From the NCBI GenBank assembly GCA_025453655.1, contig JALOPX010000001.1:1376-65375 (forward strand): 64,000 nucleotides of DNA, read 5' to 3'. A program made the position numbers and the translations under genes. Shown here piece after piece: positions 6,925 to 57,289 of this stretch. Source of the stretch: Candidatus Krumholzibacteriia bacterium (lineage in GTDB: Bacteria; Krumholzibacteriota; Krumholzibacteriia; Krumholzibacteriales; Krumholzibacteriaceae). The notes beneath the pieces were generated by a model. It was not told the DNA's origin and did no database searches. It saw nothing but the letters and a program-made list of their open reading frames with translations. Within the stretch, counting starts at the first letter, position 1. Each line of letters opens with the position of its first letter.

Positions 6925-7067
6925 GGGCCGCAACCTCCTTTTTAGATACCCCGGCCGATTATTGCAGAGACGAAGGCCCGCTGCCACAGAAAAGCCCCCT
7001 TCGCGGGAAGGGGGCTTCTGGATGAACGGGGCGCTGAGGCCCCGATAAAATTTCGCCGCCCGAAGGA

Positions 7068-7667
7068 TCACTGCTCCTTCAGATCGCTCGCCTGGTAGAT
7101 CGCCCATTTGTTCGTGTCGTTGTGATGAGGGCCGACGATGAACTGGACGTTCGCGAGGTCGCTCGTGAAGGACTTCAATTCGCCGTCCACGGTGATCTTG
7201 CATGTAAAGGAGTACTGCCTCGTGGTCGTATAGCAGTTTGCGCATACGTCCTCGACCAGTTCCCACACCGGAGCCCCTTCGAGCTTGAACTCGAGAAGGG
7301 AAGCATTCTTGAGAAGCCCCTCGGTCCCCGCGATATCCCTGGCTCTCGTCATGATCTGGTCGTCGCCCTGGGTGACGTCGACGATCGACATGTACCAGAC
7401 GTAGTCCTTGATATCGAGCGGATCGTCATAGAGGATAAGCTCGTAATGATCGGAGATCGCTTTCGATACGTCGCCCAGCCTGTTGTAGTTGTCGTAGAGA
7501 AGCAGGATCGTCTCGATGCAATCCTCTTTCTCGGTCAGGTCGGGCCAGTCGATATCCACGGGCTCGGGAGGCTTGTTGTCCTCCTCGGGGTTCAAAATAC
7601 ATCCCGATGCGCCGAGCATGAGGATCACCATCGCGGCGGCCATGGCGCGCCATATTTTAATCGTCAT
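7068..7667 (-). CDS. Lipoprotein of unknown function
   Basis: MTIKIWRAMAAAMVILMLGASGC signal with lipobox. AGGAGG SD 8 nt before this ATG. No known domain. Confidence 0.55.
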   Translation of the reverse strand: MTIKIWRAMAAAMVILMLGASGCILNPEEDNKPPEPVDIDWPDLTEKEDCIETILLLYDNYNRLGDVSKAISDHYELILYDDPLDIKDYVWYMSIVDVTQGDDQIMTRARDIAGTEGLLKNASLLEFKLEGAPVWELVEDVCANCYTTTRQYSFTCKITVDGELKSFTSDLANVQFIVGPHHNDTNKWAIYQASDLKEQ

Positions 7668-7781
7668 TTTCATTCCCTCCTTGAACACATTATACCACAA
7701 CGCCATAAGGGCGGCAAGTCATTATTAAAGAGTAAGGGCTTGCAGTATGTCTGATAAATCACGCTCCTTGCCCGGGGCAGA

Positions 7782-16849: not shown

Positions 16850-18033
16850 TGCGCGGGATCGAGGGCCTTTTTCGACTGCCTTACCTCGAAATGGAGCATG
16901 CCGCCGCTCCCGTCGGCCGCCTCGCCCGCTTCCGCTATGAGATTCCCGTGCTCGACCTGCGCCCCCTGCTCGACGAAGACGCGCGAGGCGTGAGCGTAAA
17001 GGGTGTAATACCCCTCGCCGTGATTGATGATGATGCAGTTCCCGTATCCGGGAAGCTCGCCGGAAAATTCCACCCTGCCCCTCGCCACCGCCCGCACCGG
17101 CTCTCCGGGGCGCGTCTTTATGTCTATCCCCGTGTTATAGGTCACGGTGCCGTACTCCGGGTGCTTGAAGCTCCCGAATTTCCTCGACACAGATCCGTCG
17201 ACCGGCTTGGACATCCTCCCCCTGAGCGACGCGAAGTCCCCCTCCCCGTAATCGCCCCAGGCCCCGGGCCGTTCCTTCCTCGCCTTCTCCATCTCCCCAA
17301 TGATGTCCTGCAGTTTCTTTTCCGCGGCGGCCAGCTCTTCGACGCGCTTCTCGTACTTTTTCCTGTCCGACTTGACGCCTTCCAGCGCCTTTCTCCTCTT
17401 GCGCTCGTTCTCCGTCAGCTTCCCGAGCTCCCTTTCCTTCTCGCTTTTCGATATGGTGACCTCGTGAAGGACCTCCGTTATCCCGGCTTCCTGCTTTTCC
17501 ACGATCAGCTTGCGCTCCCTGATGTCCTCGACGAGCCCCGCGTCCCTCTCGGCGATGAGGGCGAGGAACTTGTACCTCTGGAGAAGGTCGGAGAAATTTT
17601 CGGCGTCGAGAAGCTCCATCCATTCCTGCCTCGAGCCGTTCTTGTACATCTCCCTGAGGCGTTTCGAGAGGATCTCCATCCTCCGTGCGTATTCGGCCTC
17701 GCTCGCCGAAAGCTCCGACCTCAGCTCCGAGACCTGCTGCTCGAGCATCCCCTTCTTCTCGTCGAGCCCCCCGAGGAGCCTCTTCGTCAGGCGTTCCTCG
17801 TCCTCGAGCTTCCTCAGGTAATCGGACTCCACCTTTTCCTTCTTCTCGAGGTCCTTTATCTTTTTCCTCTGTTCCTCGATCTGCCTGCGAAGGTCGTTGA
17901 GCTCGCTTTCCTTTTTGGAGATCTTCTCGTTGATTTTGGTGTCGTCCTCCTCCTGGGCGGGCGAGCGCCCGGCCGCCCCCGTGAGGGCGAGGAGAAGAAA
18001 GGCGGTTATCGCTGTCCTGACGCTGTTTCTCAT
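16825..18033 (-). CDS. envC: Murein hydrolase activator EnvC-like (coiled coil plus degenerate/active M23 domain)
   Basis: Signal peptide, ~250 aa of coiled coil (KK/EE heptads) and a C-terminal LytM/M23 domain (GIDIKTRPGEPVRAVARGRV...YYTLYAHAS..). Lies directly downstream of ftsEX. Confidence 0.8.
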   Translation of the reverse strand: MRNSVRTAITAFLLLALTGAAGRSPAQEEDDTKINEKISKKESELNDLRRQIEEQRKKIKDLEKKEKVESDYLRKLEDEERLTKRLLGGLDEKKGMLEQQVSELRSELSASEAEYARRMEILSKRLREMYKNGSRQEWMELLDAENFSDLLQRYKFLALIAERDAGLVEDIRERKLIVEKQEAGITEVLHEVTISKSEKERELGKLTENERKRRKALEGVKSDRKKYEKRVEELAAAEKKLQDIIGEMEKARKERPGAWGDYGEGDFASLRGRMSKPVDGSVSRKFGSFKHPEYGTVTYNTGIDIKTRPGEPVRAVARGRVEFSGELPGYGNCIIINHGEGYYTLYAHASRVFVEQGAQVEHGNLIAEAGEAADGSGGMLHFEVRQSKKALDPAQWLLNGGL

Positions 18034-34880: not shown

Positions 34881-34971
34881 TATCGTCGATAGAGTCCGGA
34901 CAAAGAGGTTTCAAAATTTCAACAATAGTGAGCCTTTTGGGGTTGGCTGGTATAAAACAAGGAGGTTGGTC

Positions 34972-35421
34972 GTGAAACTTATGAAGTGGTATCCCGGAGT
35001 TACAGGAGTGACCACGTTCCAGGACGAGGTCGAGGATCTTTTCAACAACCTGTTTCTTGCGAACAGGCGCAGGGTAGATCTGGGGAGCGGGGTATGGATT
35101 CCCAGGGTAAACATCAGGGAACACGAAGACAAGTACGAGCTTACGGCCGAAATCCCCGGGATGAACAAGGATGAGATCAGCATCGAGCTGCAGGACAACA
35201 ACCTGACCATCCGCGGCGAAAAGAAGGCCGAATCGGAAGCGAAGGACGAGAATTTCCATATATGCGAAAGAGTATACGGGAAGTTCGAGAGGTCCTTCCT
35301 CCTTCCCGAAGACACATCGGCCGAAGGAGTCGAGGCCGAGTACAAGGATGGGATTCTTGCGGTTTCCATCCCCAAGACCGAAAAGCAGAAACCCAAAGAG
35401 ATCAAGGTCAGGGTGAAGTAG
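34972..35421 (+). CDS. Small heat-shock protein, Hsp20/alpha-crystallin family
   Basis: Alpha-crystallin domain (DIREHEDKYELTAEIPG...ELQDNNLTIRGEK...GILAVSIPK). GTG start 6 nt after GGAGG; an alternative ATG lies at 34981. Confidence 0.85.
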   Translation: MKLMKWYPGVTGVTTFQDEVEDLFNNLFLANRRRVDLGSGVWIPRVNIREHEDKYELTAEIPGMNKDEISIELQDNNLTIRGEKKAESEAKDENFHICERVYGKFERSFLLPEDTSAEGVEAEYKDGILAVSIPKTEKQKPKEIKVRVK

Positions 35422-35537
35422 CCGGACTACGATCCGCAAAAGAAAGGGAGCCGCGTCATGCGCGGCTCCCTTTTTCTATATATCCCGCACCCTGTGCGAA
35501 GCCGGATACCCTGCGCCGGGCCTGCGGCCCGCCGCCG

Positions 35538-36026
35538 TTACCGCGACCACGTGCCCGCGTGTTCCCTTTTCTCCTTCGACTTGTCGTCCTGCCCCTGCAT
35601 CCCCTGCTGAATCGCAGCGGGCTGGTTGTGGCTTTTGCCGTCGGGGCTCATCTTGCAGGAGCCTTCGAAGAAGACCCCCTCATCGATGACGAGCCGGATC
35701 GTCTTGATATCCCCCTCGAGCCTCGACCCGGCCTGAAGCTCTATCTTCTCCCTGGCATCTATATTCCCCTTGACCTTCCCGCCTATGACGGCGCTCGTGA
35801 CGGATATGTCGGCCTTGACGCTGCCATCCTTGCCGACCACGAGGGTTCCCGGGCAATTTATCGTGCCCTCGAAATCCCCGTCGATTCTCAGGGTTCCTTC
35901 CTTGACATCTATGGTCCCTTTTACCGTGCATCCCTGTCCGAGTATCGAGTTCATTTTACCCTCCGTTATCATCTTTTCACCCTCTTTCCCGAATATCGCG
36001 ATCCCTTTCGACTGGCTTTTTTTCAT
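35538..36026 (-). CDS. Bactofilin (CcmA-like polymer-forming cytoskeletal protein)
   Basis: Bactofilin beta-helix repeats (GCTVKGTIDVKEGTLRIDGDFEGTINCPGTLVVGKDGSVKADI..) and a disordered Q/K-rich C-terminal tail. Confidence 0.8.
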   Translation of the reverse strand: MKKSQSKGIAIFGKEGEKMITEGKMNSILGQGCTVKGTIDVKEGTLRIDGDFEGTINCPGTLVVGKDGSVKADISVTSAVIGGKVKGNIDAREKIELQAGSRLEGDIKTIRLVIDEGVFFEGSCKMSPDGKSHNQPAAIQQGMQGQDDKSKEKREHAGTWSR

Positions 36027-36036
36027 ATCTATTACC

Positions 36037-36840
36037 TCATTTTAAAAGGTATTTTAAAGGGTCGACAGAAATATTGTTCTGTATGACCTCGAAATGAAGG
36101 TGCGGCGCCGAGCTTGTCCCCGTGTTCCCTGAATACGCGATCGTCTGTCCGCGCCCCACTCTTTCGTCCTTAACTACTACCACCCTGTCGTTATGCCCGT
36201 AAAGGGTTTTTATTCCATATCCATGATCGACCGTCACAAGATATCCGTAAGTATCGTCCCATCCGGCCTCTATGACATATCCAGCCGCGGCGGCCCTGAT
36301 CGGCACCCCCCGTTCCAGCGCGATGTCGATTCCCGGATGATGTTCGGGGCCAGACCTCCCGCTCGTCACGCTGAACCCCCTCGTGATGTGTCCCCGTGCC
36401 GGCCAGAAACTTGGAAATGCGAGAAGCATCTGCGTTTTTTCGTTTTCCACCTCCTGTGTTCCGGTTTCACCCGCCTCCGTCGCTCCGGCGGTCCATGTCG
36501 TGTCCCCCCGGGCGGCGCCGAGCAGTCTCCTTACCTTTATTTCCATCACGTTGAGCTCGGCCAGGTCCCTCATCAGGATCCCTATCTTTTCGTTTCTCCT
36601 GGTCAGCTCTTCGACCTGCCTTTCGAGCATCACGATCTCCCGCGCCTTCAGGAGCAGATTCCCATATGTCGCCAGAAAGATCGTCAGCCCCACGATCCCC
36701 ACGGCAAGAACCCCGACGAATACGTAGAAAAACATGTACGATATCTTGTAGGTCCTCGTTTTCTGTATGTCGTGAGGCACTATGATTACCGAGAACTTCT
36801 CGTTTTTATTTATCCGCCGGATTATCCACCCCCGGAACAA
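36037..36840 (-). CDS. Membrane-anchored M23 (LytM) metalloendopeptidase
   Basis: N-terminal TM helix, a coiled-coil segment and an M23 domain with HPGIDIA and GHNDRVVV..HLHFEV motifs. There is a 7-nt gap after parB and an 11-nt gap before the bactofilin. Confidence 0.8.
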   Translation of the reverse strand: MFRGWIIRRINKNEKFSVIIVPHDIQKTRTYKISYMFFYVFVGVLAVGIVGLTIFLATYGNLLLKAREIVMLERQVEELTRRNEKIGILMRDLAELNVMEIKVRRLLGAARGDTTWTAGATEAGETGTQEVENEKTQMLLAFPSFWPARGHITRGFSVTSGRSGPEHHPGIDIALERGVPIRAAAAGYVIEAGWDDTYGYLVTVDHGYGIKTLYGHNDRVVVVKDERVGRGQTIAYSGNTGTSSAPHLHFEVIQNNISVDPLKYLLK

Positions 36841-36847
36841 CCGAACC

Positions 36848-37705
36848 TTACGCCAGTATGTCGATCCCCATGCGCGAGAGTATCCCCTCGAGCTCGTCCC
36901 CCGAATAATACTCGATGAGGATCGCTCCTCCCTTTTTCCTCGGCACGATGCGGGCCCTCGTGCCGAGCAGCAGTTCGAGCCTTTCCTCCAGCGCCGCGAT
37001 CTGCGGATCGGCTTTTCTATGCCCTCTCGGTTTTTTTCTTTTGCCGTGAGGCCTCGCGGCGTCTTCCACCTCGCGCACGGTGAACCCGTCCTCGACCACC
37101 CGCCGCGCCCACTCTATCTGTTCCTTCTCTCCCTCGATCGAGAGGATCGCCCTCGCGTGACCGGCGCGGAGCTTGCCCTGTTCCAGAAGCGCTATCACCT
37201 CGGCGGGGAGGTTGAGAAGCCTGATCGTGTTCGCGACCGTGCTTCTCTCCTTTCCCAGAATATCCGCTATCTCCCTGGCGGGGATGTCGAACTCCTCCTG
37301 CAGGGCCACATACCCGCGCGCTTCCTCGATCGGGTTGAGATCCTCTCGCTGAAGATTCTCCAGGAGGGCGAACTTGAGCGAGTTGTCGTCGTCGACCCTT
37401 CTTACGATCGCCGGCACCGTCGCTTTTCCCGCGAGCTTCGAAGCCCTGAACCTGCGCTCTCCCACGACGAGCTGGTAACGCGCGCCGACCCTCCTTACCA
37501 CCACGGGCTGAAGAACGCCATGTTTCTTTATCGAAGCGGCGAGCTCGCGCAGTTGCTTCTCGTCGAAATGTTCCCTGGGCTGATTCGGATTCGGATCGAT
37601 CTCGTCGAGTTCGATATCCATGACCCGTTCCGTCTCGGATACGCTCTCCTTGAGGTTTTGTGGAATAAGAGCTTCCAACCCCCTCCCGAGAACCTTTTTT
37701 CTCAT
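36848..37705 (-). CDS. parB: Chromosome partitioning protein ParB (Spo0J)
   Basis: ParB box GERRFRA, an HTH region and the N-terminal LGRGLEALIP. Confidence 0.9.
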   Translation of the reverse strand: MRKKVLGRGLEALIPQNLKESVSETERVMDIELDEIDPNPNQPREHFDEKQLRELAASIKKHGVLQPVVVRRVGARYQLVVGERRFRASKLAGKATVPAIVRRVDDDNSLKFALLENLQREDLNPIEEARGYVALQEEFDIPAREIADILGKERSTVANTIRLLNLPAEVIALLEQGKLRAGHARAILSIEGEKEQIEWARRVVEDGFTVREVEDAARPHGKRKKPRGHRKADPQIAALEERLELLLGTRARIVPRKKGGAILIEYYSGDELEGILSRMGIDILA

Positions 37706-37706
37706 G

Positions 37707-38507
37707 TCACTCCGCCCTTCCGCGCCGGACGGGCTCTTTTTCCGAGCCTCCGTTTTGTTTGGAGATAAGTTCCCTGGCGAGTTCCAGATAACTTTTCGCG
37801 CCGGAACTTTCTATATCATAAAGGACGATCGGTTTCCCGAAACTCGGAGACTCGCTGAGCCTCACGTTGCGGGGAATGATGCTGTCGTAGACCTTCTCCC
37901 CGAAATACGAGATCGCCTCGCTGGCGACCTGGCTCGACAGCCTGAGCCTCTTGTCGAACATCGTCAGCAGCACCCCTTCTATCTTGAGATCGGGGTTGAG
38001 GTGTTTCTGAACCATCCTGATCGTGCTTAGAAGCTGGCTCAGCCCTTCCAGGGCGTAATATTCGCACTGTATCGGGATCAGCACCGAATCGGCCGCCGTC
38101 AGCGTGTTGACGGTGAGCAGCCCCAGGCTCGGCGGGCAGTCTATTATAAGGTAATCGTACCTGTCCCTGATTCCCGCAAGGGCCGCCTTCAATTTTCTCT
38201 CCCTTGCGATCTGGGATACGAGCTCTATCTCCGCCCCATTTAGTCGTGGATGAGAGGGGATAAGATCGACGAGGTCGGTTTTCCTGACCACCCCGGCCGC
38301 GTCCATTTCGCCTATAAGTACTTCATAAATAGTAGGTTCCCCTTCTTCCACCCTTATGCCCAGGCCGCTGCTGGCGTTCGCCTGCGGGTCGACGTCCACG
38401 AGCAGCACCTTCGCCTCCGCAACGCCGAGGCTGGCGCTGAGATTCACGGCTGTCGTCGTCTTGCCGACTCCGCCCTTCTGATTCGCTATGGCAATGATCT
38501 TTCCCAT
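37707..38507 (-). CDS. parA: Chromosome partitioning ATPase ParA (Soj)
   Basis: Deviant Walker [14 protein letters not shown]. Only 1 nt separates it from parB. Confidence 0.9.
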
Positions 38508-38555: not shown

Positions 38556-39755
38556 CTAGTAGGTGACTGGAGAGGCCGTAAGCCATGGATTGAAAAGGAC
38601 TTTCGGACCCGTCGCGACGTCGTCGCCGTCGAGTATGTAGTCCGCTATCTCGGTGCTGGTGATGTATCCCCAATAGTTCTCGGTGAAATCGAGATTTTCG
38701 TCGGCGAAATATTCGCTGAGGTAGGCACCGTACTGGTTCAGATAGATCGCGCAATTTTTCACCTGGGGAACCGAGCGCCCCGAAACCCTGAATCCGCCGA
38801 AGTATGTATTGTTGGATACGTTACAGTATTGGATGTCGGCCTGCGGCGAGTTCCCGCCTCCACCTATCCACACTCCGTAATTCCCGTTGTAGCGCACGGT
38901 CGAATTTCTAATTATGGTATGTGAATCGTTCGTCCTGATTCCACCGCCGTTTTCCCATATCTTGCATCCGGTTATATCGACCGAGGCGCTGTCTGCGGCC
39001 AGTATCCCGAGATCGCACGATACTATCGTGCATGTATCTATCTCGACGCTTGCGTTGTTCTCGACGCTGATCGCGGTGATGGCTCCGCTGATATTGGCGT
39101 GCCTTATGATCCCGGCCGCGTCCGCCCCGGCGAAGTAGATCCCGGTCCATGCGCCGGCCGTTATCTGGCAGGAATTCGACTTGATTGTCACCGGGTTCGA
39201 TTCCGTCCCGAGGATCTGCATGGTGCCGGCGACGGAGAATCCTCCGTTCTCATTGGCGAATACGATCGTCACGCCGTCATGCAGGATCAGGGTCGTGCGA
39301 AACCCGACCTGCAGCGGAACCAGGGAGCTGACTATGTAAAAAGAGCCGTTATCGTCGATTTCGGCATCCCCTGGAAGAAGAACAAGTTCTTGTCCTACAA
39401 CAAGATCTTCCGTTATTGTGCTCTCCTCGATCTCGTCGGTCACAATCAGCGTGACCTTGTATATCCCCGCCGTCTGAGGGGCCACCCATTGCACGCACTG
39501 GCCGGCCCCGTCGGACGGGGTGAATGTCCCGTGCGCGGAGGTCCACCTGTAGGAGATCGGGTCCCCGTCCGCGTCCTCGCCCGAGCCACACAATGTAATC
39601 GGTTTCCCGGTACCCAGATAGCAGACATTCTTTTCGATTTCGAGATTCCCCGGAGGGGTGTTCTTGAAATCGAGGCTCTCATCGCAGCCCGCAATAACCG
39701 CCAGGATTGCCGGCAAAACCCATAACCGCTTTAATATGAATGTGATGGATCGCAT
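38556..39755 (-). CDS. Lipoprotein with a PKD-like domain and right-handed parallel beta-helix (PbH1) repeats
   Basis: Lipobox MRSITFILKRLWVLPAILAVIAGC. A PKD-like segment (ISYRWTSAHGTFTP..YKVTLIVTDE). Repeated NxSGxxxxI, Asn-ladder beta-helix repeats (NISGAITAISVENNASVEID..). Confidence 0.65.
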   Translation of the reverse strand: MRSITFILKRLWVLPAILAVIAGCDESLDFKNTPPGNLEIEKNVCYLGTGKPITLCGSGEDADGDPISYRWTSAHGTFTPSDGAGQCVQWVAPQTAGIYKVTLIVTDEIEESTITEDLVVGQELVLLPGDAEIDDNGSFYIVSSLVPLQVGFRTTLILHDGVTIVFANENGGFSVAGTMQILGTESNPVTIKSNSCQITAGAWTGIYFAGADAAGIIRHANISGAITAISVENNASVEIDTCTIVSCDLGILAADSASVDITGCKIWENGGGIRTNDSHTIIRNSTVRYNGNYGVWIGGGGNSPQADIQYCNVSNNTYFGGFRVSGRSVPQVKNCAIYLNQYGAYLSEYFADENLDFTENYWGYITSTEIADYILDGDDVATGPKVLFNPWLTASPVTY

Positions 39756-39943: not shown

Positions 39944-39959
39944 AGTTTCACGTGAAACG
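39944..39959. promoter_or_regulatory. parS centromere-like site 1
   Basis: AGTTTCACGTGAAACG matches the canonical parS TGTTTCACGTGAAACA at 14 of 16 positions, with a perfect 14-bp palindromic core. It lies between rsmG and the parAB-side operon. Confidence 0.75.
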
Positions 39960-40029: not shown

Positions 40030-40051
40030 CGCCGTTTCACGTGAAACGGCG
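40030..40051. promoter_or_regulatory. parS centromere-like site 2
   Basis: CGCCGTTTCACGTGAAACGGCG is a 22-bp perfect palindrome containing the parS core GTTTCACGTGAAAC. It lies 75 bp from site 1. Confidence 0.75.
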
Positions 40052-42746: not shown

Positions 42747-44225
42747 TCATTTCCCGATGCAGAATCGCGAAAATATCGTATCGAGAAGGTCTGCCGCGGT
42801 TGACCTGCCCGTCACCCTCCCGCATGCGTCGATCGCCTCCCTGAGCTCGAGGCTTATGATCTCCGCCCCCTTTTCGCCGGAAAGCTCCTTCTCCACCCTG
42901 CCGAGCGCCTCCATCGCCTCTCTCAGGGCCGCTGCCTGCCGCGCGTTAAGAGCGATCCTCTCCCCGCCGATCCTGGACACCTCTCTCCCAACCGTTCTTT
43001 CGAAGATCATCCTTTTCAGCTCTTCGAGCCCCTCTCCGGTGAGCGCAGAGACGGAGACGATCCTCGTCGGATCGATCCCTGCCCCCGCCTCCGCCGCGGG
43101 GAAATTATCCCCCGGCGCCTTTCGCGGAGCTTCGGAGGCCGGAACCTTCGAGCCCGCAGCCTTGTGGCCCGCGGCCTCAGGAGAGGAATCCTTCTCCCCG
43201 GCAACCCGATGCGGACCGGGGACGAGATCCGCCTTGTTGAGCACCGTTATGCTCTCCCTGCCGCCCGCGAGGGCGAGCTCCCTCGCCGTGCCCTCGTCGA
43301 TCTCCACGCTTCCGTCGATGACGAAGAGAACAAGATCGGCGTCCTCGGCCGCCCTCCTTCCCATCGATATCCCGCGCGCCTCGATCTCGCACCCCGTCTC
43401 CGCGATCCCTGCCGTGTCCTCCAGGTAATATGTGAAGCCCCCCATGTGAATCCGTTCCCGGAGAAGATCCCGGGTCGTCCCCGGGACGGGGGAGACGATC
43501 GCCCTCTCCTCCCCGATCAGCGCGTTGTAGAGGCTGCTCTTCCCGGCGTTTCTCGGGCCGAGGATCGTGATTCGTATGCCGCGCCTCAATTTCTTCCCCG
43601 CGACCTCCGACTCGAGGAGGCCGGCCAGGCTTCTTTTCGCCCCGGCCACGATCGCGCCGAGGCCGGCCCCGTCCCACGTCTCGATCTTCTCTTCCGAGAA
43701 ATCGATCGACACCTCGACCAGCGCGAGCTGCTCCATGAGAATCTTTTCGATCCCCGCGATCCTCTCCGACAGCGCCCCCTCTAGGTGTTCCAGGGCCACG
43801 ATGCTCTGAAGCCTCGTCTCGGATGATATTAGATCGGCGACCGCCTCGGCCTGAACGAGATCGAGGCGGCCGTTGAGATAGGCTCTTTTGGTGAATTCCC
43901 CGGGGCCCGCCGGGACGGCTCCCCTGGCGAGTGCGTCCTCGATGATCGCGGACACGACCTGCATGCTGCCGTGGCAGTATATCTCCGCCACATCCTCGCC
44001 CGTATATGAATCGGGAGCCTTCATGATGACGGCGAGGGCGTCATCCATCGGCTCCCTTTCGATGTTTCTCAGTATCGCCCGGTGGATCGTGTGCGATTCC
44101 CAGCGCCCTGCGGCCGTCGCCATGGCGCGCATGATCGGCGCCGCTTCCGGGCCGGAAATCCTGATCACCGCGATCCCCGATTCCCCGGGGGGCGTGCTCA
44201 GGGCCACAACCGTGTCGCCGTTCAT
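42747..44225 (-). CDS. mnmE: tRNA modification GTPase MnmE (TrmE)
   Basis: G1 GPRNAGKSSL, G4 NKAD and C-terminal CIGK. Contains a ~40-aa Ala/Pro/Gly-rich insertion between G4 and G5. Confidence 0.9.
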   Translation of the reverse strand: MNGDTVVALSTPPGESGIAVIRISGPEAAPIMRAMATAAGRWESHTIHRAILRNIEREPMDDALAVIMKAPDSYTGEDVAEIYCHGSMQVVSAIIEDALARGAVPAGPGEFTKRAYLNGRLDLVQAEAVADLISSETRLQSIVALEHLEGALSERIAGIEKILMEQLALVEVSIDFSEEKIETWDGAGLGAIVAGAKRSLAGLLESEVAGKKLRRGIRITILGPRNAGKSSLYNALIGEERAIVSPVPGTTRDLLRERIHMGGFTYYLEDTAGIAETGCEIEARGISMGRRAAEDADLVLFVIDGSVEIDEGTARELALAGGRESITVLNKADLVPGPHRVAGEKDSSPEAAGHKAAGSKVPASEAPRKAPGDNFPAAEAGAGIDPTRIVSVSALTGEGLEELKRMIFERTVGREVSRIGGERIALNARQAAALREAMEALGRVEKELSGEKGAEIISLELREAIDACGRVTGRSTAADLLDTIFSRFCIGK

Positions 44226-44935
44226 GACCTTTCTTTTGGCTTGCTGAAGCGGTTTTTTCGTTCGCCGCCGTGCTCCGGCGAGACGAAGACCTTCCTCATC
44301 TCCCCGTTCCCCACCGTGTAAGTCGAAATCCCCTCGATCTCCGAGAGGGCCATATGCACGATTCTTCTCTCCGAGGCCTTCATCGGCTCGAGGCCGACCT
44401 CCCTCTTCGATTTTTTCGCTCTTTCGGCGGCCTTTACCGCCTTCTGCTTCAGGATCTCCTGGCGGTTCTTGAGGTACCCGCCGACGTCGAGGGTCAGGCG
44501 CTGATACCCGCCGAGCTTGCGCGACACTATCCTGCCGACAAGGTGCTGGAGGGAATTGAGCGTATCCCCCTTGCGCCCGATCAGGAGCCCGTCTACCCCC
44601 GCCGTCTCGATATTGATGTATGTCGTGTCGTCGAGCGTGTCGGAAAATATCCTGTAGTTTATGTCGAGGCAGTCCATGATAAGCTTCGTGACGCTGTCGG
44701 CGACCTCTTCGACCCCTGCCGAGCCTTTTTTAAGGGCGACCCGTATCTTCGCCTCTTTCGATCCGAAGATGCCGAGAACCCCCTTCTGCCCAGGCTCGAG
44801 GATCTCGATGTCGACCTCCTCGACCTTTGCCCCGAGCTCCTCCAGGGCCGTCTCGAGCGCCTTTTCGACCGTCTTGCCCGTCGCTTCCGTGGATTTCTTT
44901 CGCTGCTCCGTTCTGGCTGTTTTGATCATATCCAT
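44222..44935 (-). CDS. jag: Jag/KhpB RNA-binding protein (Jag_N, KH, R3H)
   Basis: Jag N-terminal domain, KH-like region and C-terminal R3H. The yidC-jag-mnmE arrangement is conserved. Confidence 0.8.
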   Translation of the reverse strand: MDMIKTARTEQRKKSTEATGKTVEKALETALEELGAKVEEVDIEILEPGQKGVLGIFGSKEAKIRVALKKGSAGVEEVADSVTKLIMDCLDINYRIFSDTLDDTTYINIETAGVDGLLIGRKGDTLNSLQHLVGRIVSRKLGGYQRLTLDVGGYLKNRQEILKQKAVKAAERAKKSKREVGLEPMKASERRIVHMALSEIEGISTYTVGNGEMRKVFVSPEHGGERKNRFSKPKERS

Positions 44936-45051
44936 CCTTCAGCTCCTGTTCCCGTGGGTGATATTGTAGAATTTCATATTCCACCGGCTTCGTCGATCTT
45001 CCCCTGCCGGCGGCCGCACCCATACGGCCGTCGGGGGCTTCATTCGTTTTC

Positions 45052-46848
45052 TCATTCCGCTGGCGACGCGGCTTCGCCGGCCGCTTTTTCCTCCGCGTCG
45101 ATCGCTTTGTGCACGTAGTACTGCTGGACGATCGAAAGAACGTTGTTGACCAGCCAGTACAACACCAGGCCCGAGGGCATGCCGTAAAAGACGAAGGTGA
45201 AGACGATCGGCATCATCCACTGCATCATCTTCGTCTGGGCGTTCGGCAGATCCCCGCCCCCCATCCTCGACTGCACCACCATCGCCGCCCCCATCAATAT
45301 CGGAAGGAGGCGGAACTCGCTGCCCAGCAGGGGCAGGTTCAGCCCGAAATCAAAGAGTGCATCGGGCATCGACAGGTCGTTGATCCAGAGGGCAAACGGG
45401 GCGCCGCGAAGCTCGACCATGTTGCTGAGCACATTGAACAGCGCGATGAAGACGGGCATCTGCAGGAGCAGGGGCAGGCATCCCCCGAGGGGATTCACCC
45501 CCGACTCCTTGTACATCCTCATCGTTTCCTGGTTCAGCTTCTGCTTGTCGTTTTTGTACTTCTCCTGGATCTCCTTGAGCTTCGGCTGAAGCTTCTGCAT
45601 GTCCTTCATCGATTTGAGGCTCTTGTGAGTCAGCCTGTAGAAGACGACCTTGGTGAGGATCGACAGGATGATTATGATCCAGCCGTAATTCGGGATGAAC
45701 CTGTACATCCACGTCATCATCTTCAGGACGGGCACGCTGAAGAATCTCATGTGGCCGAGATCGATCGCCTTCTCGAGCCCCACCCCGTACCCCTTGAGCG
45801 CGTCCATCTCCTGGGGACCGAAATAGCATCGGAAGGATTCCTCGACCCTTTCGGGATCCCCGCGGAAAGGATATCGAAGCGAGTACCCGGTCTTTCCCGC
45901 CGCCCTGTCTCCCGTCGTCACGAGCGTGCCGCTGCGCTGCGCCCCGGGGATCAGGGCGCTGATGAAGTACCTCGACCTCGCGGCTCCCCAGAACACCGTG
46001 CCGTCATGTTCGAACATGCCGGTCTTGGCGAACTTGCCCGTGTCCTCCTTGTAGTATTCGTCCCCGACCCTTCCGAGGGAGGCGATCTTCTGCTTTTCCT
46101 GTTTTTCATTCTTTTCGTTCAGGGCGAGGCCCGGCTCCCAGGAAACGGCGTATCCGGCCGTGCGTGCCAGCTCTCCGTTTCTCTCCATGGCCACGGTCAA
46201 TTCCGCGTCGCCGGCGTCCCTTGAAAAGACGAACCTCTTGTCGACCGCTTCGCCGCCTCCCCCTCTCTTCGAAAAGAGGATCTCGGCCCGCGGCTCTCCT
46301 TCCGAAAGGACGATCTCCTCCCCGCCCGTCGCCGGCCTTCCGTTTATCGTGAGGTCGAAAATCGTTTCGGAAAAGCTTTTCCATTCGCCGTCCTTCTCGA
46401 CGGCAAGCGCCATCCCCCCACGCGCGCCCACGGGGACCAGCTCCACCGCGCCGCCGGCGGGCTTCTCGAATCCGGGGAGGCGCACGCTGGAAATCTCCGC
46501 GCCGCGGCTCGTCAGCGATACGATCATCCTGCCCGTGTCGACGGTGATTATTTTTTCCCGGGTGCCGGGGTCGTTCGCGAAGAAATCCGCCGATTCGGGC
46601 GGGGCGGCGTTCGTGCCCACCCCTTCGGTCGAATCGGCCGCGCCCGCGGTGTCGCCTTCCGCGGCTTCGGCCCTCGTCTCATCTCCGCGCCGTTCAGTGG
46701 CGGCGATCGAATCGGCCCGCGCTTTTTCGACCATCGCGGCCGACCTTCTCGCGGTCACTTCCTTCTGTCTCGGCCCGAGATAAAGGATCTGCCACGCGAG
46801 GAGGATTACGAAAGTAACGGCGATCGCCAGAAATGAACGTTTGTCCAT
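45052..46848 (-). CDS. yidC: Membrane protein insertase YidC
   Basis: N-terminal TM helix (MDKRSFLAIAVTFVILLAWQ), a large periplasmic domain and the C-terminal five-TM YidC/Oxa1 core (..GCLPLLLQMPVFIALF..). Start trimmed from 46914 to remove the overlap with yidD. Confidence 0.85.
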   Translation of the reverse strand: MDKRSFLAIAVTFVILLAWQILYLGPRQKEVTARRSAAMVEKARADSIAATERRGDETRAEAAEGDTAGAADSTEGVGTNAAPPESADFFANDPGTREKIITVDTGRMIVSLTSRGAEISSVRLPGFEKPAGGAVELVPVGARGGMALAVEKDGEWKSFSETIFDLTINGRPATGGEEIVLSEGEPRAEILFSKRGGGGEAVDKRFVFSRDAGDAELTVAMERNGELARTAGYAVSWEPGLALNEKNEKQEKQKIASLGRVGDEYYKEDTGKFAKTGMFEHDGTVFWGAARSRYFISALIPGAQRSGTLVTTGDRAAGKTGYSLRYPFRGDPERVEESFRCYFGPQEMDALKGYGVGLEKAIDLGHMRFFSVPVLKMMTWMYRFIPNYGWIIIILSILTKVVFYRLTHKSLKSMKDMQKLQPKLKEIQEKYKNDKQKLNQETMRMYKESGVNPLGGCLPLLLQMPVFIALFNVLSNMVELRGAPFALWINDLSMPDALFDFGLNLPLLGSEFRLLPILMGAAMVVQSRMGGGDLPNAQTKMMQWMMPIVFTFVFYGMPSGLVLYWLVNNVLSIVQQYYVHKAIDAEEKAAGEAASPAE

Positions 46849-46885
46849 CAACGACTTCCCTTCTGAAAAAGGCGTATCGGGCTTT

Positions 46886-47116
46886 TCAGCGAAGCGGGTC
46901 GTGCCCGCCGGCATTGAAGGGGTGGCATCTCAGGATGCGCCACAGCGCCAGGCGCGAGCCCCTGAAGAATCCGTAACGACTCAGGGCCTCCTCGGCGTAC
47001 TGTGAACAGGAAGGCGTGAACCTGCAGGCCGGTGCGTGATACGGGGAGATAGCTGTTCTGTATAGTCTGACGGCCAAGAGGCCGACCCGCGTCAGAATCC
47101 TGGATATCATCCGCAA
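46886..47116 (-). CDS. yidD: Membrane protein insertion efficiency factor YidD
   Basis: YidD signature YRTAISPY...CRFTPSCSQYA. Confidence 0.85.
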   Translation of the reverse strand: MRMISRILTRVGLLAVRLYRTAISPYHAPACRFTPSCSQYAEEALSRYGFFRGSRLALWRILRCHPFNAGGHDPLR

Positions 47117-47454
47117 TTTGATATCAGTCCGGCCCTCACGAGAGAGCGTTCCACATCTTCCAACAGTTCCTGAAATGACGTCTCCTCAGGACGAAATGAG
47201 GCAATAAACACTATCCAGATATTTTTCTCGTTGATCCTGTCCCGCAGCTTTCTGAATATTTCCCTCATCAGCCTTTTCGCCCTGTTTCGCTGACAAGCCT
47301 TGCCCACTCTTTTTTTGCTCGCAACAAAACCTGCGGACGGCCCTTCGCATTCTGCTCTGAGATAGAGAACGGTGATCCTTTTGCCGGCTTCCCTTCGCCC
47401 TTCGCGGTATACGAGCCTGAACTGGCTGTCCTTCTTCAGTCCTTCGGCCGCCAT
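47107..47454 (-). CDS. rnpA: RNase P protein component
   Basis: RnpA motif region (..RNRAKRLMRE..). Confidence 0.85.
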   Translation of the reverse strand: MAAEGLKKDSQFRLVYREGRREAGKRITVLYLRAECEGPSAGFVASKKRVGKACQRNRAKRLMREIFRKLRDRINEKNIWIVFIASFRPEETSFQELLEDVERSLVRAGLISNCG

Positions 47455-47494
47455 CGGGCTGGGCCTTCCTTCCGGTCCGCGCCGGACGCCCGGC

Positions 47495-47629
47495 CTATAC
47501 GGTAAGGCGCTTTCTTCCCCTGGTTCTTCTTCTCTTCAGAACATCGCGGCCCGTGGCCGTGCTCATTCTTTTCCTGAACCCGTGAGTTTTTTTCCGTCTC
47601 TTGTTATGCGGTTGAAATGTGCGTTTCAT
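47495..47629 (-). CDS. rpmH: 50S ribosomal protein L34
   Basis: [44 protein letters not shown]. Start set at the internal ATG; the track ORF is over-extended. Confidence 0.9.
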
Positions 47630-48053
47630 CGGTCCAACCTCTTGTTGATATATATCCCGGCGCTTTATACATAAACAACAAAGAATAGAAACCGGGCCCC
47701 TCCTTGTCAAGTCTTTTATGCCCCCCTCGGATAACTCTTTTGTTTCCGGCCTGTTCCGGCACGCCATTTCGCGAATTAATTCAGCCCTTCACGATCGGGA
47801 TGCTTTTACCTCCGCCGCCTTTGTCGTATCTGCTTGCCCGGCTGGATATTATAAATATTTTCCCCCTTTGTGCAAAAAATTCTTGATATGCATTTTTCCC
47901 TATGATACATTACCGTCCGCGGGATGGGGGGAGTATCAAAACCGGGGGCCTTTCTACCGGATCACATTGTTCCCCTGCTTGGAGATTGTGGAAAAAGCTC
48001 TGACATCATATTAACAAGCCCGCCGTTTTTGTTGTAATAATTGAAATTGCCGA

Positions 48054-48075
48054 GTTATCCACAATTGTGGATAAC
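48054..48075. promoter_or_regulatory. Two inverted perfect DnaA boxes forming a 22-bp palindrome in the dnaA promoter / leader
   Basis: GTTATCCACAATTGTGGATAAC contains TTATCCACA and TGTGGATAA (both 9 of 9). It lies ~60 nt upstream of the dnaA ATG. An AT-rich tract at 47845-47915 and partial boxes at 47976 (TGTGGAAAA) and 47730 (GGATAAC) lie upstream. Confidence 0.7.
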
Positions 48076-48135
48076 CTGGATTTTTGGAGAGCGCCTGTCT
48101 TTCCACGGGGATATTTTTTTCTTGTGCGGGGCTCG

Positions 48136-49500
48136 ATGAGCGCGGAAAAAGAACTGAACGCGATCGATCTTTCCAGGATCTGGGCGGAGATTCTCGCCCT
48201 TTTGAAGGATAAGGTCAACGCCCAGAGTTACCAGACCTGGTTCGAGCCGACACGTCTCGTCAGCTTCGAGCAGGGTGTCATCGTGATCCAGGGCCCGAAT
48301 TCCTTTTTCATAGACTGGCTGGCCGAGCATCACGTCGACAGAATAAGCTCCGCCGCCGCCACGGTGCTGGGAGAACCCGTCGCCGTGGAGTTCACATCTC
48401 CTTCTCCCGCAAGGAGTTCGCGTATTCACGCTCCGCTCGAGCGGTCGACCCTGGTCAGAAACCCCGTCATTCTCCCCAACAAGGTTCAGCTCAACGGCAG
48501 GTATACCTTCGGCGAATTCGTCGTGGGAAACGGCAACCGGCTCGCCCACGCGGCGGCCCTCGCCGTGGCCGAAAAGCCGGCTAAAACCTATAACCCGCTC
48601 TTCATCTACGGGGGGCCCGGGCTCGGCAAGACCCATTTAATACAGGCGATAGGCCATTTCGTCCTTCAGGAGCATCCGGGCATGCGAATCTCTTACGTCT
48701 CGACGGAGAGCTTCGTCAACGAGCTTATCCACGCCATCAGGACGGGCGTAACTCTCGAATTCAAAGAAAGATACAGGAACGTCGACATTCTCTTGATCGA
48801 CGACATACATTTCCTTGCCGGCAAGGAAAGGACCCAGGAGGAGTTCTTTTTCACCTTCAACGCCCTGCACGACTCCAACAAGCAGATCGTCTGCACGAGC
48901 GACAGGCCCCCGAAGGAGATCCCGACCCTCCAGGAGCGCCTCACCTCGAGGTTCGAATGGGGCCTTATAACCGACATACAGCCTCCCGACTTCGAGACGC
49001 GCGTCGCGATCCTCCGGAAAAAGATCGAGAACGAGCATATTCCCATCCCCGACAGCGTCATCACGCTGATAGCGGAGAACGTCAAGAGCAACACGCGCGA
49101 GCTCGAGGGCTCCCTTATCAGGATCCTCGCGTGCGCCAGCCTCACGAACAGGGACATAAACGTCGACATGGCCCGGGAGATCATCCAGGACATCGTCAAG
49201 GGCCCGGAAAAGAACCTGACGATCCAGACGATTCAAAACGCCGCCGCCAGATGCTTCGACGTCCCCGCCGACAGCCTCCGCGCGAAGACGAGGATCGGAA
49301 GGGTCGTCGTCGCGAGGCACGTAGCCATCTATCTCTCGCGCGAGCTCACCTCCTTCTCCCTCGTTCAGATCGGCGCAAAATTCGGCGGACGCGACCACAG
49401 CACGGTCCTGCATTCGTGCAGGAAGATAGAGCGCGAATGCGCCACCGACGCCTCCCTCGCGAGAAAGATCGAGAATCTCCGCGAAGAGCTCTCTTCGTGA
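48136..49500 (+). CDS. dnaA: Chromosomal replication initiator DnaA
   Basis: N-terminus MSAEKELNAIDLSRIWAEIL, AAA+ Walker A GGPGLGKTHL, sensor motifs and a C-terminal DNA-binding domain IV. Start set at the ATG at 48136; the track start (GTG 48067) lies inside the DnaA-box palindrome. Confidence 0.9.
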   Translation: MSAEKELNAIDLSRIWAEILALLKDKVNAQSYQTWFEPTRLVSFEQGVIVIQGPNSFFIDWLAEHHVDRISSAAATVLGEPVAVEFTSPSPARSSRIHAPLERSTLVRNPVILPNKVQLNGRYTFGEFVVGNGNRLAHAAALAVAEKPAKTYNPLFIYGGPGLGKTHLIQAIGHFVLQEHPGMRISYVSTESFVNELIHAIRTGVTLEFKERYRNVDILLIDDIHFLAGKERTQEEFFFTFNALHDSNKQIVCTSDRPPKEIPTLQERLTSRFEWGLITDIQPPDFETRVAILRKKIENEHIPIPDSVITLIAENVKSNTRELEGSLIRILACASLTNRDINVDMAREIIQDIVKGPEKNLTIQTIQNAAARCFDVPADSLRAKTRIGRVVVARHVAIYLSRELTSFSLVQIGAKFGGRDHSTVLHSCRKIERECATDASLARKIENLREELSS

Positions 49501-49894
49501 ACCGTCGCGACGCTTCCCCGGAACCCTTTTCGCCCCCGCCCCGTTATCCACAAATCGATGTTGATGGATTGTTGAGACGCGCGGACAACCCGGGGGTTGT
49601 TTGCCGATGTTCACAACCCGGGCCTTTTCCACCATCCCCTCAACATGCCCCGGGAGAGGTTTTCAGCCCCGGCGCGGCGCCTTTCGCGACGTTCCATAAA
49701 CATATCCACACACCCTTCCACTTCTTCTGTTTTTATATTAACCGTACCGAAGCAGGGAACCGGTTGTTGACAATTTTCGTCAGACCAATTTTTCTTGTAA
49801 ATGTCCCTTGTTTGGCTTATCCTCATTTTCTCCGAAGAAGTCACGGAGTTAAAAAATATCGAAACATGGAAAAAGGGCACCAGGAGGTAGTGGT
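49501..49894. other. Candidate oriC (dnaA-dnaN intergenic): DnaA-box cluster plus AT-rich unwinding element
   Basis: Boxes TTATCCACA at 49544-49552 (9 of 9), ATATCCACA at 49702-49710 (8 of 9) and TTATCCTCA at 49817-49825 (8 of 9). AT-rich tracts at 49730-49800 and 49850-49880. A repeated ACAACCCGGG motif at 49585-49622. Confidence 0.5.
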
Positions 49895-51001
49895 GTGAAG
49901 ATCACAGTCCCGCTGGCGGAATTGAGCAGGAAGATGAACGCGATTTCGACGGTCGTTCCCAACAGGACGACCATGCCGATACTTTCAATGGCCCTCGTGT
50001 CGGCGGACGAAACCGGAATTTCATTTTCCGCGACGGACCTCGACATATCCGTTACGTCGAGGGTCAACGGGACGATCGACGAAAACGGCAGGCTTGCCGT
50101 GCCGGCGAAGAAGATCGCGGAGATAGTCAAATCGCTTCAGGGCGGCGACGTGAAGATGGAGGCGGAAGGGGAGAAGCTCACGATAAAATGCGGCAAAAGC
50201 AAATTTGTGGTCAATGGAAGAAGCGCTGACGATTTCCCCAAGCTGCCGAAACAGGACGGAAAGACGGAGTTCACCATCGCCTCCGGAGTCCTGGGGAAAC
50301 TCATACACAAGACGATATACGCCGTGTCGACGGATCTGACGAGACCGGCCCTTTGCGGGGTCAAATGGGAGGTCGACAAGTCGGGCCTCGTGATGGTCTC
50401 GACGGACGGGCACAGGCTGGCGAAGGTGGAGATGAAAAGCTCCCTCGGAGACATCCAGAGGGCCGACGTCATCGTCCCGCCGAAAGCCCTCGCGACCTTC
50501 AGGGCGTACTCGGAAAAGGAAGAGTCGATCAAAATCAACATCGGGGACAACAGCATCTCCTTCGACATGGACGAGGTGATGATCTACTCGAGGCTTCTCG
50601 AGGGGCCATTCCCGAATTATCAGAAGGTCATCCCCTCGAAAAACGCGAAGGAGCTTCTCGTGTCGAGGGAATCCCTGTCGGCCGCGACGAAAAGAGTCTC
50701 GATCCTCTCCGACGCCCTGACGCACCAGGTCATCTTCTCGCTTAAGAAGAATCTTCTCACGCTGCACGTGACGACTCAGGATCTCGGGGAGGCGAGGGAG
50801 GAGATAGACGCGACGTGGTCCGACGACGAGATGGAGATAGCCTACAACGCCGCGTACGTGCAGGACATCCTGAGGACGATCGAAGCCGAGGAAATAGCCT
50901 TCAATCTCGACAGGCCGGACAACGCGGCGGTCGTGATGCCGGTGGAACAGGGCGGGGATATAAAGCAACTCTGCATCGTCATGCCGTTGAGAATAAATTG
51001 A
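49895..51001 (+). CDS. dnaN: DNA polymerase III beta sliding clamp
   Basis: Three-domain clamp. GTG start 6 nt after AGGAGGT. Confidence 0.9.
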   Translation: MKITVPLAELSRKMNAISTVVPNRTTMPILSMALVSADETGISFSATDLDISVTSRVNGTIDENGRLAVPAKKIAEIVKSLQGGDVKMEAEGEKLTIKCGKSKFVVNGRSADDFPKLPKQDGKTEFTIASGVLGKLIHKTIYAVSTDLTRPALCGVKWEVDKSGLVMVSTDGHRLAKVEMKSSLGDIQRADVIVPPKALATFRAYSEKEESIKINIGDNSISFDMDEVMIYSRLLEGPFPNYQKVIPSKNAKELLVSRESLSAATKRVSILSDALTHQVIFSLKKNLLTLHVTTQDLGEAREEIDATWSDDEMEIAYNAAYVQDILRTIEAEEIAFNLDRPDNAAVVMPVEQGGDIKQLCIVMPLRIN

Positions 51002-51035
51002 GGCGCGGGACGGGCGGGAAGTGCGGTGAGAGGGC

Positions 51036-52187
51036 GTGATCGTAAAAAGCCTCCATGCCGGTAATTTTCGAAACATCCGTTCAGCGGACGTGGAATTTTC
51101 CGAGACCTTCAATTTCATCGTCGGGGGCAACGCGCAGGGGAAAACCAACCTGCTCGAGGCCCTTCACATGTTTTCCCTCGGAAGATCCTTCAGGACTAGG
51201 CGCTCCGACGAGCTGATAGCCTTCGGGGAGGATTTCCTCTTTCTGAAGCTCCGGGGGCTGAGCGACTCGGGGGTCGGGTTCACGCTCGACCTGGGGCTGG
51301 AGAGGGGCGGAAGGGTGACGGCCTCCGCGAACGGAGGGAGGCTGCCGGGGCTTTCGGAGATCATCGGGATGATACCCTCCGTGATCTTCGCGCCGGGCGA
51401 CGTCGAGCTTTCGAGCGGGCCGCCGGCGGGGCGTAGGCTCTACATGGATTACACCGCGGCGCAGGTTTCGCCGCCCTTCCTTTCCGACCTGAAGGAATAC
51501 AGGAGGGCGCTGGGGCAGAGAAACGTGCTGCTGAAAAGGATGCAGGGGGAGGCCCGGGAAAGGCGCGACCCGGAGGACGGCCGGTCGCGGCGGGCGCAGC
51601 TCGATGCCTGGGACGCGATGCTCGCGGAGAAGGGGGCCGGCGTGGTGGCGGGGCGAAGGGAGATCCTCTCGGCGGTGGCGCCGGCGGCGCGCGGGATATT
51701 CGCCGAGATGGCGCCGGGCGCGGGCGACCTCGGGCTTTCGTACCATTGCTCCTTCGACGAGGGGGAAGGGGGCCGGCCTTCTGTCAGGGAAGCCCTTTCC
51801 GCGGCCCTTTTGCGCGGCCGCGAGGCGGACAGGCGGAAGGGGTTCACGGGAACCGGGCCCCATTGCGACGACATGACGATACGGCTGGGGGACGTCGACC
51901 TCAGAAGGTTCGGCTCGCAGGGCCGGAAGAGGCTCGCGGCGATAGCGCTGAAGCTCGCCCAGGCGGAGGTCATAATGGAGCGGCGGTCGGAAAGGCCGGT
52001 CGTGCTTCTCGACGACATCTTCTCGGAGCTGGATTCGGCGACGGCATGCAGGGTCCGGGGGCTCCTTTCGGGCAGATACCAGAGCTTCGTCACCTCTCCG
52101 AAACTGTCCGATCTCGGGGAATGCCCCGGCGGAGGGATCGTGATAAAGGTCGAAAACGGCGCCCTGAGCACAGGGGTACGGGCCTGA
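51036..52187 (+). CDS. recF: DNA replication and repair protein RecF
   Basis: Walker A GGNAQGKTNLLEAL, an SMC-like signature and Walker B VVLLDDIFSELD. GTG start. Confidence 0.9.
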   Translation: MIVKSLHAGNFRNIRSADVEFSETFNFIVGGNAQGKTNLLEALHMFSLGRSFRTRRSDELIAFGEDFLFLKLRGLSDSGVGFTLDLGLERGGRVTASANGGRLPGLSEIIGMIPSVIFAPGDVELSSGPPAGRRLYMDYTAAQVSPPFLSDLKEYRRALGQRNVLLKRMQGEARERRDPEDGRSRRAQLDAWDAMLAEKGAGVVAGRREILSAVAPAARGIFAEMAPGAGDLGLSYHCSFDEGEGGRPSVREALSAALLRGREADRRKGFTGTGPHCDDMTIRLGDVDLRRFGSQGRKRLAAIALKLAQAEVIMERRSERPVVLLDDIFSELDSATACRVRGLLSGRYQSFVTSPKLSDLGECPGGGIVIKVENGALSTGVRA

Positions 52188-52357
52188 CGAAAGGGGGGGC
52201 GCTCGGGCGGCGGACGGGATGCCCCCGCGGGGCGAAACCGCCGGTCGCCCCGGGGGGAAAAGGCCAGGCGCGCGGGCGCAAAATAGCGGCTTTTTTTGTT
52301 TATTTCCGCGCCCGTTAGTAATAGACTTCGTGGACGCGCAAACAGAGGGAGAGCGTC

Positions 52358-54596
<2,239 letters not shown>

Positions 54597-54703
54597 CGGG
54601 ATGGCGCAAGAATAACACGGCGTAAAGGGCGGCATTCGCGGGCTCTGAAGGAATGGTCTGAAGGCCGCGGGCCCGCGGAGGGAACCGGAGGAGGAACAGC
54701 TCG

Positions 54704-57289
<2,586 letters not shown>

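Follow-up and report, generated by a model that had tools for sequence, protein, structure and literature searches.

The locus considered here raises the question of why a gene for a cell-wall endopeptidase and a gene for a bactofilin directly follow the chromosome partition genes parA and parB in the vicinity of a replication origin. It lies on the minus strand of a 64,000-nucleotide (nt) stretch of a Candidatus Krumholzibacteriia genome (contig JALOPX010000001.1; this whole stretch is called the window), where the four genes run in the order parA, parB, M23 metallopeptidase, bactofilin. The reading that we favor, with a rough probability of 0.6, is an origin-proximal ParABS unit that carries a co-expressed wall-morphogenesis module of the BacA-LmdC or CcmA-Csd1 kind. 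A physical complex of this module with ParABS is considered less likely than a link at the level of expression.

The gene identities proposed by the original prediction, which was made from the nucleotide sequence without database searches, were confirmed by Pfam. The parA gene (37707-38507, minus strand) encodes a Soj-type partition ATPase with the deviant Walker A motif KGGVGKT (AAA_31, 6.8e-68; CbiA, 2.8e-29). The parB gene (36848-37705, minus strand) encodes a ParB_N domain (3e-34) with the motif GERRFRA, followed by a helix-turn-helix domain (HTH_ParB, 4e-33) and a C-terminal dimerisation domain (ParB_C, 7e-12), and it also matched NCBIfam parB_part (1.6e-55). The third gene (36037-36840, minus strand) starts with TTG and encodes a putative bitopic M23 metallopeptidase (Peptidase_M23, 5.7e-31, residues 167-261), and the fourth (35538-36026, minus strand) encodes a bactofilin (PF04519, also DUF583; 4.7e-29, residues 27-125). 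The ParA/Soj ATPase, the three-domain ParB, nearby parS palindromes and the origin-proximal position are together all the hallmarks of a chromosomal ParABS system. The gaps between the four genes, read from the sequence, were 1, 7, and 10 nt; the first two had been predicted as such, while the third had been put at 11 nt. The 7-nt gap between parB and the M23 gene is firm, because no canonical start codon other than the TTG at 36840 lies upstream of the invariant residue F16. Shine-Dalgarno-like motifs, AAGG for the M23 gene and GAGG for the bactofilin gene, precede the starts and overlap the stop codon of the gene upstream. A second open reading frame (ORF) of the M23 family is present elsewhere in the window (16825-18033, minus strand, 402 amino acids; phmmer 1.4e-17 against the M23 protein of the operon).

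Conservation of the parB-M23-bactofilin adjacency in relatives had been set as a test of the original prediction. An M23 profile was run against a genome set in which each GTDB species had a single representative. Of its matches, which numbered at least 583, the best 80 were taken as survey loci (designated by L and a number), and homologs of the window proteins were located in them by phmmer and tblastn. This sample consists of the 80 closest M23 genes and is not an unbiased set of parB loci, and the frequencies apply to this M23 clade alone. The adjacency was found to be conserved: parB was directly upstream of the M23 gene, in the same orientation, in 76 of the 78 loci long enough to tell, and in 79 of 80 the bactofilin gene was its direct downstream neighbor. 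Between the parB stop codon and the F16 codon the median distance was 23 nt, with at most 60 nt in 63 of 82 loci, which indicates that the M23 start abuts or overlaps parB in most genomes. By record title, the 80 loci included 12 from Krumholzibacteriota, with unnamed relatives in addition, and 44 from Gemmatimonadota (Gemmatimonadales and Longimicrobiales, with M23 identities of only 31-39%), as well as 2 Eisenbacteria, 1 Raymondbacteria and 1 Thermoanaerobacter. The order parA-parB-M23-bactofilin is thus shared by at least four lineages at the phylum level, namely Krumholzibacteriota, Gemmatimonadota, Eisenbacteria and Raymondbacteria. Chance adjacency was rejected, with the same order recurring in the related loci for both parB and the bactofilin gene.

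The flanks of the block were less constant than the block itself. M23 homologs with 56-97% identity, in one 4.1-Mb genome and several metagenome contigs, share the whole context of the window, mnmG-rsmG-lipoprotein-parA-parB-M23-bactofilin and then a convergent hsp20 gene. The lipoprotein gene and the convergent hsp20 were confined to Krumholzibacteriota-type loci, and in Gemmatimonadota loci the bactofilin gene is normally followed by a Nif3-like gene. Because the flanking genes differ between lineages, the four-gene block can be regarded as the conserved unit. The two exceptions to the parB adjacency were L036 (Thermoanaerobacter thermocopriae, 6010-7327) and L055 (5983-7288), which keep an M23-bactofilin pair of the same clade and have neither parA nor parB within 6 kb; the pair therefore also exists as a free-standing module. 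In L077 (Gemmatimonadales, 5992-7732), parA-parB-M23 was kept and the Nif3-like gene directly follows the M23 gene, an apparent lineage-specific loss of the bactofilin gene.

Some survey records showed irregularities of their own. L048 and L011, titled as a Methanobacteriota archaeon and a member of the Patescibacteria group, carry a bacterial mnmG-parA-parB-M23-bactofilin cluster. The M23 N-terminus of L048 is a close match to that of L050 from Gemmatimonadales, with identical gene order and coordinates, and the two titles probably reflect mis-binning or mislabelling. In L012 (4331-6805), which among the GTDB representatives is nearest to the window and has an M23 protein 97% identical, parA, parB and the M23 gene are each split into two ORFs, probably by assembly frameshift errors rather than as pseudogenes.

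The M23 protein itself is predicted to be bitopic, with a short cytoplasmic N-terminus rich in basic residues and one transmembrane helix. In the AlphaFold model, a beta-hairpin (residues 15-20 and 29-34; predicted local distance difference test, pLDDT, 67-82) is followed by a transmembrane helix (36-58), a coiled coil (about 59-106), a linker and the M23 domain (about 165-265). The model has one unbroken helix over residues 35-106, in which the hydrophobic stretch 36-58 has a pLDDT of 82-93, and a second helix at 121-141. The N-terminal transmembrane helix and coiled coil of the original prediction are thus borne out by the model, in which the coiled coil would precede the M23 domain on the periplasmic side. 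Across 81 distant homologs, with 27 close homologs also examined, H168, D172, H247, and H249 were invariant and H216 was at least 90% conserved. Since the zinc-binding and catalytic residues are intact, the protein is expected to be an enzyme and not a degenerate activator of the LytM type. The best-conserved stretch outside the catalytic domain among the 27 homologs was the N-terminal hairpin motif FSVIIVPHDxxKTRTY, which fits a candidate binding determinant for the bactofilin; it lies in the predicted cytoplasmic-tail peptide MFRGWIIRRINKNEKFSVIIVPHDIQKTRTYKISY, where F16, H23, and T28 are the residues of interest. Current database labels of the protein are 'MepM/NlpD' or 'M23 family metallopeptidase'.

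The closest solved structure to the M23 domain was Csd1 of Helicobacter pylori (5j1l_A, E-value 4.7e-20). In the Csd1(-Csd2)-CcmA system, as in the proposed module, a bactofilin and an M23 endopeptidase form a functional pair; the N-terminal architecture of the window protein differs, and no Csd2-like inactive second M23 gene adjoins the block. A closer parallel in layout is LmdC, whose cytoplasmic beta-hairpin binds the bactofilin BacA and whose chain continues with a transmembrane helix, then a coiled coil, and lastly an M23 domain that is active as a DD-endopeptidase (Pohl et al. 2024, PMC10945521). The window protein has the same predicted arrangement: a tail with a beta-hairpin, a transmembrane helix, a periplasmic coiled coil and an intact M23 domain. 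In Hyphomonas neptunium as well as in Rhodospirillum rubrum, too, the bactofilin gene adjoins a bitopic M23 gene. Neighboring M23 and bactofilin genes recur in 226 species, and many entries of the table of these species, e.g., Thermoanaerobacter, likewise have the M23 gene first and the bactofilin gene after a tiny gap (PMC10945521). What differs in the window is that the pair is embedded behind parAB; bacA-lmdC forms an operon in R. rubrum, and the main text of that paper makes no mention of ParB (PMC10945521). The original view of the M23-bactofilin pair as a known cell-shape module of the Csd1/CcmA type agrees with both Csd1 as the nearest solved structure and the published LmdC-BacA pair. 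It also set the membrane-anchored M23 enzyme against a PadC-like adaptor; such an enzyme is nevertheless no unusual partner for a bactofilin, since LmdC-BacA is of exactly that type (PMC10945521).

The bactofilin of the window has a lysine-rich N-terminus, a beta-helical polymer-forming domain (residues 27-125) and a charged C-terminal tail. The sequence MFGKEG occurs at or near the bactofilin N-terminus in many relatives (e.g., L001, L008, L009, and L021-L025) and resembles the published membrane-targeting consensus MFSKKKK, which is located at the extreme N-terminus of bactofilins (PMC12448750). In the window, the corresponding sequence is IFGKEGE at residues 11-17, with ATA replacing ATG (N-terminal coding stretch 35976-36026, minus strand). 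Because this methionine codon is ATA, the window bactofilin must start 10 codons earlier, with the lysine-rich MKKSQSKG. The methionine of MFGKEG was likewise lost in L007, L010, and L018, which have a lysine-rich leader instead. Membrane targeting of the window bactofilin is plausible from these N-terminal residues. In Krumholzibacteriota, the bactofilin tails contain a stretch rich in lysine and glutamate, then a conserved small residue-x-K/R ending (AWTK and HAGTK in relatives; TWSR in the window).

The four genes are expected to form one transcription unit, as had been predicted, and the tight spacing is consistent with this. Between the four genes, the consensus scan found nothing resembling a terminator on the coding strand, although its promoter and terminator counts were not above those of shuffled sequences and it missed the terminator after the bactofilin gene. 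An intrinsic terminator hairpin was located at 35437-35478 (minus strand), about 60 nt past the bactofilin stop codon, with a 13-bp GC-rich stem, a 5-nt loop and a U-run; the RNA fold of 35425-35540 had an energy of -59.3 kcal/mol (z = -4.3). This terminator is probably bidirectional, because an A-run and a T-run flank the hairpin, and it is probably common to the bactofilin gene and the convergent hsp20 (34966-35421, plus strand). In order, strand and short gaps the window genes are compatible with a unit like the parA-parB-bactofilin ones of Myxococcus xanthus (bacM) and Bdellovibrio bacteriovorus (bd3904), and the block may be such a unit with the M23 gene intercalated.

The situation between parB and the M23 gene was not the same in all relatives. 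In 5 of 82 loci, the distance from the parB stop codon to the F16 codon exceeded 200 nt, up to 406 nt. Enlarged spacers of 114-406 nt, read by eye, contained TTGACA-type -35-like elements in several cases, namely in the spacers of 130-406 nt of L033, L037, L038, L041, L044, and L074, and the L074 spacer had a near-consensus TTGACA-N17-TATATT. These elements suggest that in some lineages a separate promoter may serve the M23-bactofilin pair.

Upstream of parA, on the same strand, are found mnmG, rsmG, a 256-nt intergenic region, a lipoprotein gene and then 48 nt to parA. Two parS-like palindromes were found in the window, against 0.02 expected by chance, and both lie in the intergenic region between rsmG and the lipoprotein gene: CGTTTCACGTGAAACG (40033-40048), with 2 mismatches to TGTTTCACGTGAAACA and a perfect core 14-mer, and AGTTTCACGTGAAACG (39944-39959). 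The predicted parS sites are therefore present, but they do not adjoin parA on its upstream side as had been supposed: the distance is 1.4-1.5 kb and the 1.2-kb lipoprotein gene intervenes. Copies of parS were upstream of parA in every related locus where parS was detected. The lipoprotein gene (38556-39755, minus strand) encodes PKD and right-handed beta-helix domains (Pfam Beta_helix, NosD, and PKD). It probably begins with MRSITF..., after which comes the lipobox IAGC, while the longest ORF starts at 39818; the homolog in L005 was called at 399 amino acids. Flank clustering placed this gene upstream of parA in 16 Krumholzibacteriota-type loci, and none of the Gemmatimonadota loci surveyed gave a sign of it. 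Because it overlaps the parA start in some loci (3003-4274 in L001 and 2969-4201 in L002), the lipoprotein gene may stand at the head of the operon and be transcribed first.

We propose the following mechanism by analogy with the published modules. The bactofilin would polymerise at the cytoplasmic face of the inner membrane, and the polymer would capture the short cytoplasmic beta-hairpin tail of the M23 enzyme. The periplasmic endopeptidase would thereby be confined to set sites, where it would cut peptidoglycan cross-links and shape growth. The link with parAB, as judged from the genomic context, would be one of expression: the genes would share a promoter within the region that holds the parS sites, and also the gene dosage of the origin vicinity and their timing in the cell cycle. 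Spreading of ParB from these sites may possibly add to it. There is a precedent for such an expression-level link in M. xanthus, where bacM is co-transcribed with parAB and yet is dispensable for segregation (PMC3899335, PMC5703909).

Several observations weigh against this co-expressed module. The N-terminal region of LmdC corresponds to the Pfam family DUF5930, and a search with its N-terminal peptide retrieved only DUF5930 fragments of up to 119 amino acids; the window M23 protein gave no match to this family at E-values up to 10, and DUF5930 was not among the 25 most-matched Pfam families of the 81 homologs (E-value up to 1). Moreover, hhalign of the N-termini was not significant (0.3% with 3 sequences; 1.2%, P 0.04, with 20 sequences). 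A gapless alignment made by eye between the window tail and the LmdC peptide had only F16, H23, T28, and Y31 in common, and the weak hhalign alignment was in the same register (T28, Y31, and the transmembrane helix). Some Gemmatimonadales tails, such as VTIVIHRDGDLESKQYRFP, look by eye like RQIYHRSGGTVRY of LmdC. The window M23 protein is thus called LmdC-like, a term that refers to architecture and context and implies nothing on descent. Furthermore, the AlphaFold model was of only moderate confidence, with a mean pLDDT of 62.7 (67-93 over residues 11-60), and the sigma-70 scan was uninformative, with 2 sites found versus 3.2 expected by a consensus that may not be that of this phylum. Finally, the deep linkage to parB, together with the recurrence of parAB-bactofilin operons in two further phyla, could point beyond co-expression.

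This last point is the core of the best-surviving alternative, a coupled machine in which the bactofilin anchors ParB-parS and/or ParA at the pole or a subpolar site and positions the M23 hydrolase there too. In 76 of 78 loci, and with frequent overlaps, the order parB-M23-bactofilin has been kept over phylum-level divergence in which M23 identity falls to about 30%. In addition, bactofilin genes are co-transcribed with parAB in two other organisms. M. xanthus parA-parB-bacM-MXAN_7474 is one operon (PMC3899335), and the B. bacteriovorus cluster parA3-parB-bd3904, with a bactofilin as its third gene, was found to be co-transcribed by reverse transcription PCR (PMC7186360; gene map in PMC10547168). 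Both resemble the window in that the bactofilin gene stands with parA and parB, downstream of parAB on the same unit in M. xanthus. They differ from it in that bacM directly follows parB with no M23 gene reported between, in that the Myxococcus operon has an uncharacterised lipoprotein gene in fourth place and belongs to a different phylum, and in that the Bdellovibrio cluster has no M23 gene. The Myxococcus BacNOP-PadC system shows that bactofilins can organise ParABS, both ParB-parS and ParA (PMC5703909).

The same systems also supply the evidence on the other side. The original prediction held that BacNOP is encoded with parAB in Myxococcus, which is incorrect: the gene downstream of parAB there is bacM, and bacNOP-padC is a separate operon (PMC5703909, PMC3899335). 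BacM, so far the single bactofilin linked to parAB to have been studied, is not required for segregation (PMC3899335), does not show the localisation of BacNOP, and acts in cell shape and not in ParABS positioning (PMC5703909, PMC3899335). BacNOP-PadC works from its own operon away from parAB, with the ParB-like adaptor PadC and three bactofilin paralogs. In contrast, no PadC-like adaptor gene was found in the cluster of the window, where the sole ParB-domain protein is ParB itself, and no bactofilin gene was found in the 64-kb window besides the single one of the operon. In L036 and L055 an M23-bactofilin pair of this clade stands without parAB, as such pairs do in many published genomes; the enlarged parB-M23 spacers with their -35-like elements suggest independent promoters in several lineages. 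As to the gene order, synteny is weak evidence for interaction here, because the neighborhood also keeps the functionally unrelated genes mnmG-rsmG-parAB together. For the same reason, the earlier claim that the operon couples origin segregation to wall remodelling, which had been drawn from gene order, is weakened. We therefore regard the coupled machine as unlikely. A related proposal, in which the block is an ancient operon of Gemmatimonadota, Krumholzibacteriota, Eisenbacteria, and Raymondbacteria whose bactofilin landmark tethers ParB-parS or sequesters ParA and positions the endopeptidase, seems distinctly unlikely.

Alternatively, the M23 protein could be a division or cell-separation factor, a septal amidase activator or hydrolase timed with segregation in the manner of EnvC, NlpD or DipM, and the bactofilin a mere neighbor. 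Its layout of a coiled coil and an M23 domain resembles EnvC, the partial NCBIfam matches included DipM, ActS, NlpD, and EnvC, and weak DivIC-like matches were seen in the transmembrane and coiled-coil part of 17 of 81 homologs. However, the NCBIfam matches were all far under the cut-offs and were limited to the M23 domain. The protein is predicted to be membrane-anchored with a conserved cytoplasmic tail, unlike a secreted or lipoprotein activator, and the bactofilin gene adjoins the M23 gene in 79 of 80 genomes. The zinc-binding and catalytic residues are intact and conserved, unlike those of degenerate activators, and an activator of the EnvC, NlpD or DipM type was rejected on account of this intact active site. 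A role in division is accordingly considered improbable.

Fortuitous adjacency, with a separate promoter for the M23-bactofilin pair within the 3' end of parB and no shared regulation, draws on the long promoter-like spacers of some relatives and is compatible with the uninformative consensus scan, but it is very improbable given the gaps of 7 and 10 nt in the window, the ribosome-binding motifs overlapping the upstream stop codons, the median parB-stop-to-F16 distance of 23 nt in 82 loci, and an order and orientation kept across phyla while the flanks change.

The co-expressed morphogenesis module thus unites two associations that have been described separately, bactofilin with M23 and parAB with bactofilin, in one four-gene block that has long been kept in several poorly studied and mostly uncultured phyla. 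The original prediction had called the combination no standard system. This applies to the three-way block: searches of the literature on bactofilins in Gemmatimonadota and Krumholzibacteria, and on bactofilin together with parB and M23, found no description of a parAB-M23-bactofilin cluster. It does not apply to the parAB-bactofilin operon or the M23-bactofilin pair, which were already known; what appears to be new is the three-way block and its deep conservation in these phyla. In the 226-species table, no entry for Gemmatimonas, Gemmatimonadetes, Gemmatirosa, Longimicrobium or Myxococcus was found (PMC10945521).

The block gives a testable handle on the question of why bactofilins are so often encoded with partition genes. 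Gemmatimonadota are widespread and abundant in soils, and cultured members of this phylum are possible test organisms, provided that one of these strains proves to carry the cluster. If co-expression is all that links the genes, the result is a comparative-genomics note and an aid to the annotation of these genomes. If the coupled or landmark reading were true, this would be the first partition system hard-wired to a wall-remodelling enzyme, and it could explain the bactofilin genes beside parAB in Myxococcota and Bdellovibrionota.

The wider neighborhood of the block is a classical origin-proximal region. The origin-region genes occupy 42747-57289 of the window, with yidC, jag, mnmE, mnmG, and rsmG on the minus strand and dnaA, dnaN, recF, gyrB, and gyrA on the plus strand. 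The dnaA gene (48067-49500, plus strand) is about 9.5 kb from parA, the dnaA-dnaN-recF-gyrB-gyrA genes span 48-57 kb, and the GC-skew minimum is near 49-50 kb. An ORF on the minus strand (48637-49635) overlaps dnaA, has no Pfam match and is probably spurious.

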